A DNA stretch of 52,121 nucleotides, counting the filler, from Raja brachyura (Eukaryota), in the NCBI GenBank assembly GCA_963514005.1. It is 3 parts of 3 records of this genome, joined end to end, with 100 filler letters (N's around TTAATTAATTAA, not from the genome) between each part and the next. Parts side by side here need not be neighbours in the genome. Positions count along the whole stretch, not along the records: positions 1 to 27,466 come from OY740782.1; 2 more parts are not named here. The stretch is one strand, 5' to 3'. The position numbers and the translations under genes were made by a program. Under the pieces are notes generated by a model. It was not told the origin of the DNA and did not search any database. It was given only the letters and a program-made list of their open reading frames with translations. This document shows, one piece after another, positions 7,951 through 9,165 of this stretch. Each line of letters begins with the position of its first letter. The first letter of the stretch is position 1.

Positions 7951-9041
7951 CTATAGGCTTGATGAATTTGGTGCTGAACCATCTGGCTGTGGGCCCTGGG
8001 AGGATACTTGTGTTTGCTGGCTTGCAGAAGATGATGAGCTAGCAGAACGCATCTTAGTGTTAGGCAGTTTGTGATCTTTCTTCCATTTCATCCTTCTGTT
8101 CTGAAACCAGATCTTCACCTGGCGTTCAGACAGGCAAAGAGTGTGTGCAATCTCAATGCGTCGACGCCTGGTTAGGTAACGGTTAAAATGGAACTCCTTC
8201 TCCAGCTCTAATACTTGTTGTCTCGTGTAAGCAGTTCGAGACCGTTTGGGCTCTCCTCCAGTGTAATTTGGGTTCACTGAACAAAAAAAAGTAACCAAAC
8301 ATAAATACAGAGACAAGCACGAATCTGACAATGGGTTTAAATGTACGTGAAGGAAGGTTATAAAAGTCAGAGTTTTTTGTCAAGTGTTCTGACAACGGAG
8401 AACAATCTACTGCAATAAAATGGCTCTGGGTATTTAGGTTAGAAAAGCATCAAAGACACATGGCCAGAAGCAGGATCCAGGGCAATCAAATTTATGGGCT
8501 CTGTAATTACCGACCTAACTGTTAGGTGATCGTAAATCTCATGAAAGGGCTAGTTACAGAAAGGGTTCCGCACATCCGATTTCAAGTGAATTTTAATTGT
8601 TTCAGTTAGCTTTAGTTACTTACCGTTGGTAACGTGAATTTTCTTCATCCACGGATAAACTATGGGCTCTTTGCTGAGAGTACCCTTCTGTACAGTGGCA
8701 TTTTTCGCGTTTTGGCTACACAAAGCTGGTGTGGCTACTGGGACCACTTCACAAAGCTGATTCTGTCTCGGTATGTGATTTTGGACGCTAGCCTGCGACT
8801 GGATATGACCTCTTTGCGACATGTCTTGGTTGCCAGTGCCTTGGACATTGTTGAAGCTGTAGGTCGGCTCTGGGTAGTTTGATTGTGGGTATAGTGCCTC
8901 ATGATGGAATCCAGTGTCCCGCGGCCGCTCGTAGTATTCAGGAGATTGGCTTGGTATGTAGTTATTTTGAGAATATTCCTCACAAGGTGGAAATTTTGGC
9001 TCAACGTAGTTGGAGTTTATCAAAAACGAACTCATGGTCAT
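7951..9041 (-). CDS. hoxa4: Homeobox protein HoxA4; two exons, join(8624..9041, 7951..8276), 247 aa
   Basis: N-terminus [23 protein letters not shown], hexapeptide [10 protein letters not shown]4 homeodomain [25 protein letters not shown] and A4-type tail [12 protein letters not shown]. Phase-1 intron has a G|GTAAGT donor (8624/8623) and a polyT-CAG acceptor (8277/8276). Confidence 0.96.
8491..8509 (-). promoter_or_regulatory. HB-1 homeodomain-binding element in the HoxA4 intron
   Basis: TAATTACAGAGCCCATAAA, matching the TAATTAC...CCATAAA module known from Hox4 introns. Confidence 0.75.
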
Positions 9042-9165
9042 TAATTTCTGAAGTGCAAAATACTAATTTTTCTCGCGTTGTCGTTTTTCTGTTCCATAAA
9101 ACCCTCCTACTTGCTGTCAAGTGTATAAAGTTAGCTGTTCATGTGATGTCGGCAGCCAATGGGAA
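9041..9165 (-). promoter_or_regulatory. Conserved Hox4 proximal promoter/5' leader (CCAAT box, E-box, leader ending AGAAATTAATG) containing an 18-aa uORF at 9041..9097
   Basis: Minus strand reads CCATTGGCTGCCGACATCACATG ... GGAGGGTTTTATGGAACAGAAAAACGACAACGCGAGAAAAATTAG...AGAAATTAATG. Confidence 0.7.

Follow-up and report, generated by a model that had tools for sequence, protein, structure and literature searches.

The HoxA4 gene of the ray Raja brachyura is preceded by a short open reading frame whose stop codon overlaps the gene's start codon, and this raises the question of whether the conservation of Hox4 leaders reflects translation of the leader, by coupled termination-reinitiation or through a conserved peptide, or constraint on the DNA itself. 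The window (the whole stretch of DNA analysed, 52,121 nucleotides in three joined parts with filler) carries the gene on its minus strand. Coding exon 1 (8624..9041, minus strand) has 96% identity to stingray HoxA4 with all other matches at or below 68%, identifying the gene as HoxA4 of a ray-like fish; its upstream neighbours in the window are Hox5 and Hox6 genes. A minus-strand ATG at 9097 opens an 18-codon frame, MEQKNDNARKISILHFRN followed by TAA (9041..9097), and translation confirmed to the base the overlap described in the sequence-only reading, the final A of the TAA (9041) being the A of the exon 1 ATG (TAATG). The upstream ATG has a suboptimal context (T at -3, G at +4). The segment at 9033..9047 (minus strand) comprises AAATTAATG, the weak first HoxA4 ATG (9041, T at -3) and a stronger in-frame second ATG (9035, A at -3). 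TTAATG around the start would presumably also fit a homeodomain site. The main frame of this leader contains a stop. Human HOXA4 and HOXC4 are both listed with the start context UUAAUGA (Ivanov 2022 Dataset S1, PMC8892498).

An overlapping stop with an in-frame upstream ATG within 100 nt was found at 49 of 1760 ATGs in the window (2.8%), and a comparable uORF arose in 7.5-15% of 5000 leader shuffles per leader length when the conserved AAATTA was held fixed. The HoxA4 overlap uORF is real, yet in one gene it is only modestly above chance. An Rfam scan of the window gave no matches.

The sequence-only reading had likened the ray uORF to a mammalian HoxC4 frame differing by one codon, and such a frame was found in fish HoxC4. 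Locus L031, from a metagenome contig, is teleost HoxC4a (100% identity over 139 amino acids) and carries a 17-codon uORF that also ends in TAATG, one codon shorter than in ray HoxA4. The two uORFs are identical at 49 of 54 aligned bases and are separated by one 3-nt gap and five substitutions (two synonymous, three replacement); ray HoxA4 and HoxC4 have the same phase across this gap, an outcome expected by chance in one case out of three. The Hoxc4 uORF is reported to be conserved from mammals to fish and is one of 13 Hox uORFs listed inside CAGE-defined leaders, a list from which Hoxa4 is absent (Ivanov 2022, PMC8892498). The ray HoxA4 uORF is a paralogue of this already published uORF: it has a paralogous position, near-identical sequence and a suboptimal uAUG, and like the HoxC4a copy in L031 it ends on a weak UUAAUG main start. 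It differs in belonging to HoxA4, outside the 13 listed, and its place in the mRNA is putative. A literature search, which covered few subscription papers, returned no paper on a HoxA4 uORF or on UAAUG coupling in Hox4. As it stands, the ray locus adds a HoxA4 copy to the known Hoxc4 uORF.

Conservation of the frame was examined in annotated Hox4 proteins that start too far upstream and thus show the leader in the main frame. These read-outs are biased, in that a leader is visible only where the main frame is open and window-like leaders, with their main-frame stop, cannot appear; the queries were themselves frame-shifted forms, and the counts show existence, not frequency. The HoxA4 sample comprised 23 read-through proteins in 11 clusters, with lineage typed from protein sequence. 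Within this biased sample of bony-vertebrate HoxA4, the uORF letters run in the main frame (a one-base shift) in 22 of 23 read-outs, and 22 of 23 have either no upstream ATG or one that falls in the HoxA4 frame; only P0311 permits one at -56, its position in the window. The upstream ATG stands in frame at -60 in four of the 23, and no ATG is possible in any phase at -70..-48 in all 13 amniote-type and five teleost-type read-outs. Among the HoxD4 read-outs (n=68), 51 have the upstream letters in frame, seven in the TAATG-ending phase, seven in the third phase and three have none; the upstream ATG is kept or possible in 65 of the 68, given which an upstream AUG could matter in any phase.

One-base changes therefore shift the upstream ATG among all three phases within HoxA4 and HoxD4 genes, and the orthologue conservation that characterizes Ivanov-type Hox uORFs is not seen in bony-vertebrate HoxA4, where 22 of 23 read-outs have lost or shifted the frame. 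Absence of a conserved frame had been named as refuting in the sequence-only reading, and it applies to the HoxA4 orthologues and to HoxD4. A fixed frame is seen in HoxC4 only, where the uORF has already been published. Since the phase varies in HoxA4 and HoxD4, the uORF is likely to be a by-product of a very old, conserved regulatory sequence, and the case shows how a conserved start motif can give rise to a suggestive UAAUG. As a separate observation, teleost HoxD4a (P0027 and relatives) and some fish HoxA4 (P0245, P0305 and P0310) have the homologous upstream ATG in frame, which predicts a 20-residue N-terminal extension, near-invariant in HoxD4a.

HoxC4 also indicates what kind of constraint is at work. 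Across the uORF, 24 of 25 HoxC4 read-outs have the same 18 main-frame residues, a comparison in which changes at uORF second positions can stay hidden. As the first positions of main-frame codons are the third positions of uORF codons, the wobble positions of the HoxC4 uORF are frozen, which places the constraint on bases and not on the peptide. No synonymous bias was seen either in these read-outs or in the substitutions between the window and L031.

Scanning metagenome contigs for the pattern yielded 41 loci, of which 18 encode Hox4/Dfd-type proteins, namely L031 and 17 non-vertebrate loci. The latter matched stored vertebrate proteins partially, at 34-65% identity over 35-140 residues, and are presumably mollusc- and arthropod-type, as judged by their Dfd N-termini; seven of the 17 are near-identical, leaving 11 distinct. 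The claim that AAATTAATG is common to Hox4 leaders was supported, with all 17 non-vertebrate loci keeping it as well, and an ATG in the TAATG-ending frame was found in none of the 17. TAATG was demanded by the search pattern, so its presence in these loci is biased, and the unbiased test used positions -130..-7. Over this interval five of the 17 non-vertebrate loci (L007, L011, L015, L030 and L034) aligned to the window at 9048-9171 with z of 3.8-7.2 and with blocks common in order and spacing, while 0 of 200 shuffles aligned as well; none of 23 chance pattern matches used as controls exceeded z 1.7, and the seven near-identical loci failed to align with the window (z 0.4-0.9). The metagenome contigs (L001-L040) hold animal Hox4/Dfd genes, 18 of the 41 pattern matches, that is, host DNA.

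The blocks lie on the minus strand of the window. ATTGG at 9156..9160, an inverted CCAAT box 119 nt upstream of the ATG that we take to be an NF-Y site, has a similar place in L031, L007, L015, L030, L032 and L034. The E-box CACATG at 9140..9145 lies 104 nt upstream of the ATG, and L031, together with six loci from non-vertebrates (L007, L011, L015, L030, L032 and L034), has CACGTG at -85 to -108. GGAGGG at 9102..9107, just before the upstream ATG, is at -66 here, at -63 in L031 and at -70 to -72 in L007, L015, L030 and L034; the GAAAAATTA block at 9064..9072 recurs at -35 in L007, L029, L030, L034, L038 and L039. The order CCAAT, E-box, GGAGGG, A-rich is common to ray HoxA4 and non-vertebrate Hox4 genes, with all four blocks in order in four of the 17 loci. 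The element as a whole (CCAAT box, E-box, GGAGGG, GAAAAATTA and AAATTAATG) occurs both with and without an upstream ATG and, being deeply conserved without the uORF, it makes the uORF a likely passenger.

We therefore consider it likely, with a probability of about two in three, that what is conserved, base for base, is an ancient Hox4 promoter-and-leader element, in which the uORF with its overlapping TAATG is carried as a passenger. Selection would act mainly on the DNA sites of the core promoter, with a splice acceptor probably adding constraint in HoxC4. Of the sequence-only reading, the uORF thus stands, as do its counterpart in HoxC4 and the AAATTAATG in common; coupling or a peptide as the cause of leader conservation is not supported. 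The element offers natural phase variants for separating selection on DNA sites, on start context and on the upstream AUG.

More tentatively, and with rather less than even odds, a Hox4/Deformed promoter-to-start block missing from published lists may have been kept since the bilaterian ancestor. It would run from the CCAAT box through the E-box, GGAGGG and GAAAAATTA to a weak TTAATG start with a second ATG behind it. Jawed vertebrates would have added the upstream AUG; slips of one base would then leave HoxC4 and ray HoxA4 with a stop-start uORF, and teleost HoxD4a and some fish HoxA4 with an N-terminal extension of 20 residues. It is rare for non-coding DNA to be alignable between vertebrates and distant invertebrates, with 25 segments reported and none named for Hox4 in the account of Frith and Ni (2023, PMC10735318). 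HOX4 is cited among known bilaterian/chordate elements in a 2026 paper (PMC13012124), given which an earlier description of the Hox4 element in protostomes is possible. The same literature search, with its few subscription papers, returned no paper on such an element in protostomes.

Published element lengths provide evidence that is independent of the protein read-out bias. Copies are assigned below to HoxA, HoxC or HoxD by chromosome. Hox4-CNE-1 (Yue et al. 2016, PMC5010895) is a 5' leader element common to the Hox4 genes of amphioxus and vertebrates. It measures 49 nt in zebrafish chr23, fugu, one frog copy, mouse chr15 and human chr12; 54, 53 and 53 nt in the human chr7, mouse chr6 and chicken chr2 copies; 53-54 nt in HoxD copies; 58 nt in the other frog copy; 52 and 53 nt in the elephant shark copies; and 52 nt in amphioxus (PMC5010895). 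Assuming equal alignment ends, the published length is thus 49 nt in the five HoxC-assigned copies, whereas the remaining nine from vertebrates, those of human chr7, mouse chr6 and chicken chr2 being assigned to HoxA, span 52-58 nt. One elephant shark copy and amphioxus have the same 52 nt as the window, which, like the phase that ray HoxA4 shares with HoxC4, tells against the passenger reading. Set in register with the HoxC4 copy of 49 nt, the element of the window is 49+3 nt, and its likely equivalent, placed from these lengths, would be the 52 nt at 9042..9093 (minus strand). The window thus appears to carry a conserved stretch of the expected ~49-58 nt at the 5' leader, and the ray uORF would lie almost wholly inside it. 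Unlike the present account, the section on the element in PMC5010895 gives no uORF reading; the loci described here further suggest that the element, together with CCAAT and E-box, reaches more distant animals.

The alternative that survives best is a selected, inhibitory, stringency-sensing uORF, as published for Hoxc4, that HoxA4 would have retained in cartilaginous fishes but lost in bony vertebrates; we regard it as unlikely. The conservation of the Hoxc4 uORF from mammals to fish inside a CAGE-defined leader argues for it, as does the confirmation of scored Hox uORFs by ribosome profiling (PMC8892498). Ray HoxA4 has the same phase and the suboptimal context of the inhibitory Hox uORFs of Ivanov 2022, and the ATG is present in the A4, C4 and D4 paralogues. 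The phase, however, is free to vary among A4 and D4 genes, the Ivanov 2022 list omits Hoxa4, and Hoxc4 was not among the three leaders tested there in reporters (PMC8892498).

The position of the cap also bears on this alternative. The human HOXA4 coding start is at base 48, that is, after a 47-nt annotated leader (Ivanov 2022 Dataset S1, PMC8892498), and the ray uATG at -56 is further out than this; a short mouse Hoxa4 leader is supported by Akirtava et al. (2022, PMC9456764). The same authors describe Hoxa9-type CCAAT plus E-box promoters misread as IRESes, with the Hoxa9 CAAT box ~60 nt upstream of the start site (PMC9456764). Ray HoxA4 is alike in that CCAAT adjoins an E-box, and the Hoxa9 spacing, transferred by analogy only, would place its cap near the uATG (9097). 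With a cap upstream of 9097, a minority of ribosomes would be captured by the uATG, which is weak and close to the cap; as the two HoxA4 starts follow the stop at distances of only 0 and 5 nt, those terminating on the uORF would mostly be lost, HoxA4 would be made by leaky scanning past the uATG, and the uORF, if transcribed, would likely dampen HoxA4 mildly. If the cap lies downstream of 9097, as the human leader suggests, the uORF would never be translated.

That coupled termination-reinitiation at UAAUG brings ribosomes to HoxA4 (and HoxC4) is highly improbable. The exact UAAUG overlap is shared with influenza B M1/BM2 and calicivirus TURBS, the spacing is invariant in HoxC4, and the uORF-start AUGGAA is one mismatch from the UGGGA core; cellular stop-start overlaps have moreover been proposed (SLAMF1, GAD), with TURBS-free coupling reported for CASQ2 (PMC5972666). 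The near match is, however, the uORF's own start, and UGGGA, the TURBS motif 1 core, is absent from the 400 nt upstream in both the window and L031; TURBS reinitiation needs UGGGA, and a single mismatch already lowers BM2 reinitiation 10-20 fold (PMC3035654). Also unlike the viral cases, in which the upstream ORF is long, the ray uORF is short and the HoxA4 main ORF can be reached by leaky scanning past the weak uATG, which already accounts for main-ORF access. For ordinary short uORFs, an overlap of even 1 nt likely precludes reinitiation according to reviews (PMC5972666, PMC10275272). The window and L031 leaders fold no better than shuffles (z 0.03 and -0.01), but a stem-loop presenting motif 1 might escape such a comparison, the BM2 signal being itself weakly structured (PMC3035654). 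With UGGGA absent and the overlap lost in bony-vertebrate HoxA4 orthologues and most HoxD4 read-outs, coupling as the cause of leader conservation has no support beyond the overlap itself. Had a Hox gene turned out to use a cellular stop-restart switch, the finding would have been important, but the comparative evidence is against it. On the same fold values (z 0.03 and -0.01), RNA structure was rejected as a source of constraint. A viral scan with a loose motif returned matches at chance level, and a prokaryote genome scan gave 38 pattern matches, none confirmed.

That the 18-residue peptide is the conserved product is already largely refuted and barely credible, for although ray HoxA4 and teleost HoxC4a have the same residue at 14 of 17 aligned codons, there is no synonymous excess, and frame-preserving change is not the rule in orthologues, where the same letters are read in the main frame or another phase, or lack a start.

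A pyrimidine tract with CAG at 9048..9062 (minus strand), 6 nt before the ATG, is a possible splice acceptor, and it is exactly here that HoxC4 gene models diverge. One promoter serves Hoxc4, c5 and c6, with alternative splicing (PMC2868907). Nine of 120 proteins from the HoxA4 search, all predicted models, have an unrelated N-terminal extension and take up the genomic reading at 'KL' or immediately ahead of it, as expected if the CAG before AAATTAATG is used as an acceptor. As a general explanation the acceptor was rejected: AG is missing at its position in all 17 non-vertebrate loci, and bony-vertebrate HoxA4 reads His, not Gln, at the acceptor codon, so that the acceptor can only add constraint in some paralogues.

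Elsewhere in the window, the HoxA4 intron holds a cluster at 8470-8540 (minus strand), TTTACGAT...TAATTA...CATAAAT, resembling what we take to be the known Hox4 intron element HB-1. The HoxA6 leader has a 5-codon uORF at 24939-24956 (minus strand), at -72 and in weak context, with ATTGG at -150. A Hoxa6 uORF is reported from mammals to tetrapods only (Ivanov 2022, PMC8892498), and the ray frame, if homologous, may extend it to cartilaginous fish. Between ~27000 and 52121 the window shows no Hox7 or further Hox genes after HoxA6; this region holds retroelement-like ORFs, simple repeats, N gaps and an Ig V-set segment (45217-45585). The break after HoxA6 is likely a scaffold misjoin, the first joined part of the window ending at 27,466.
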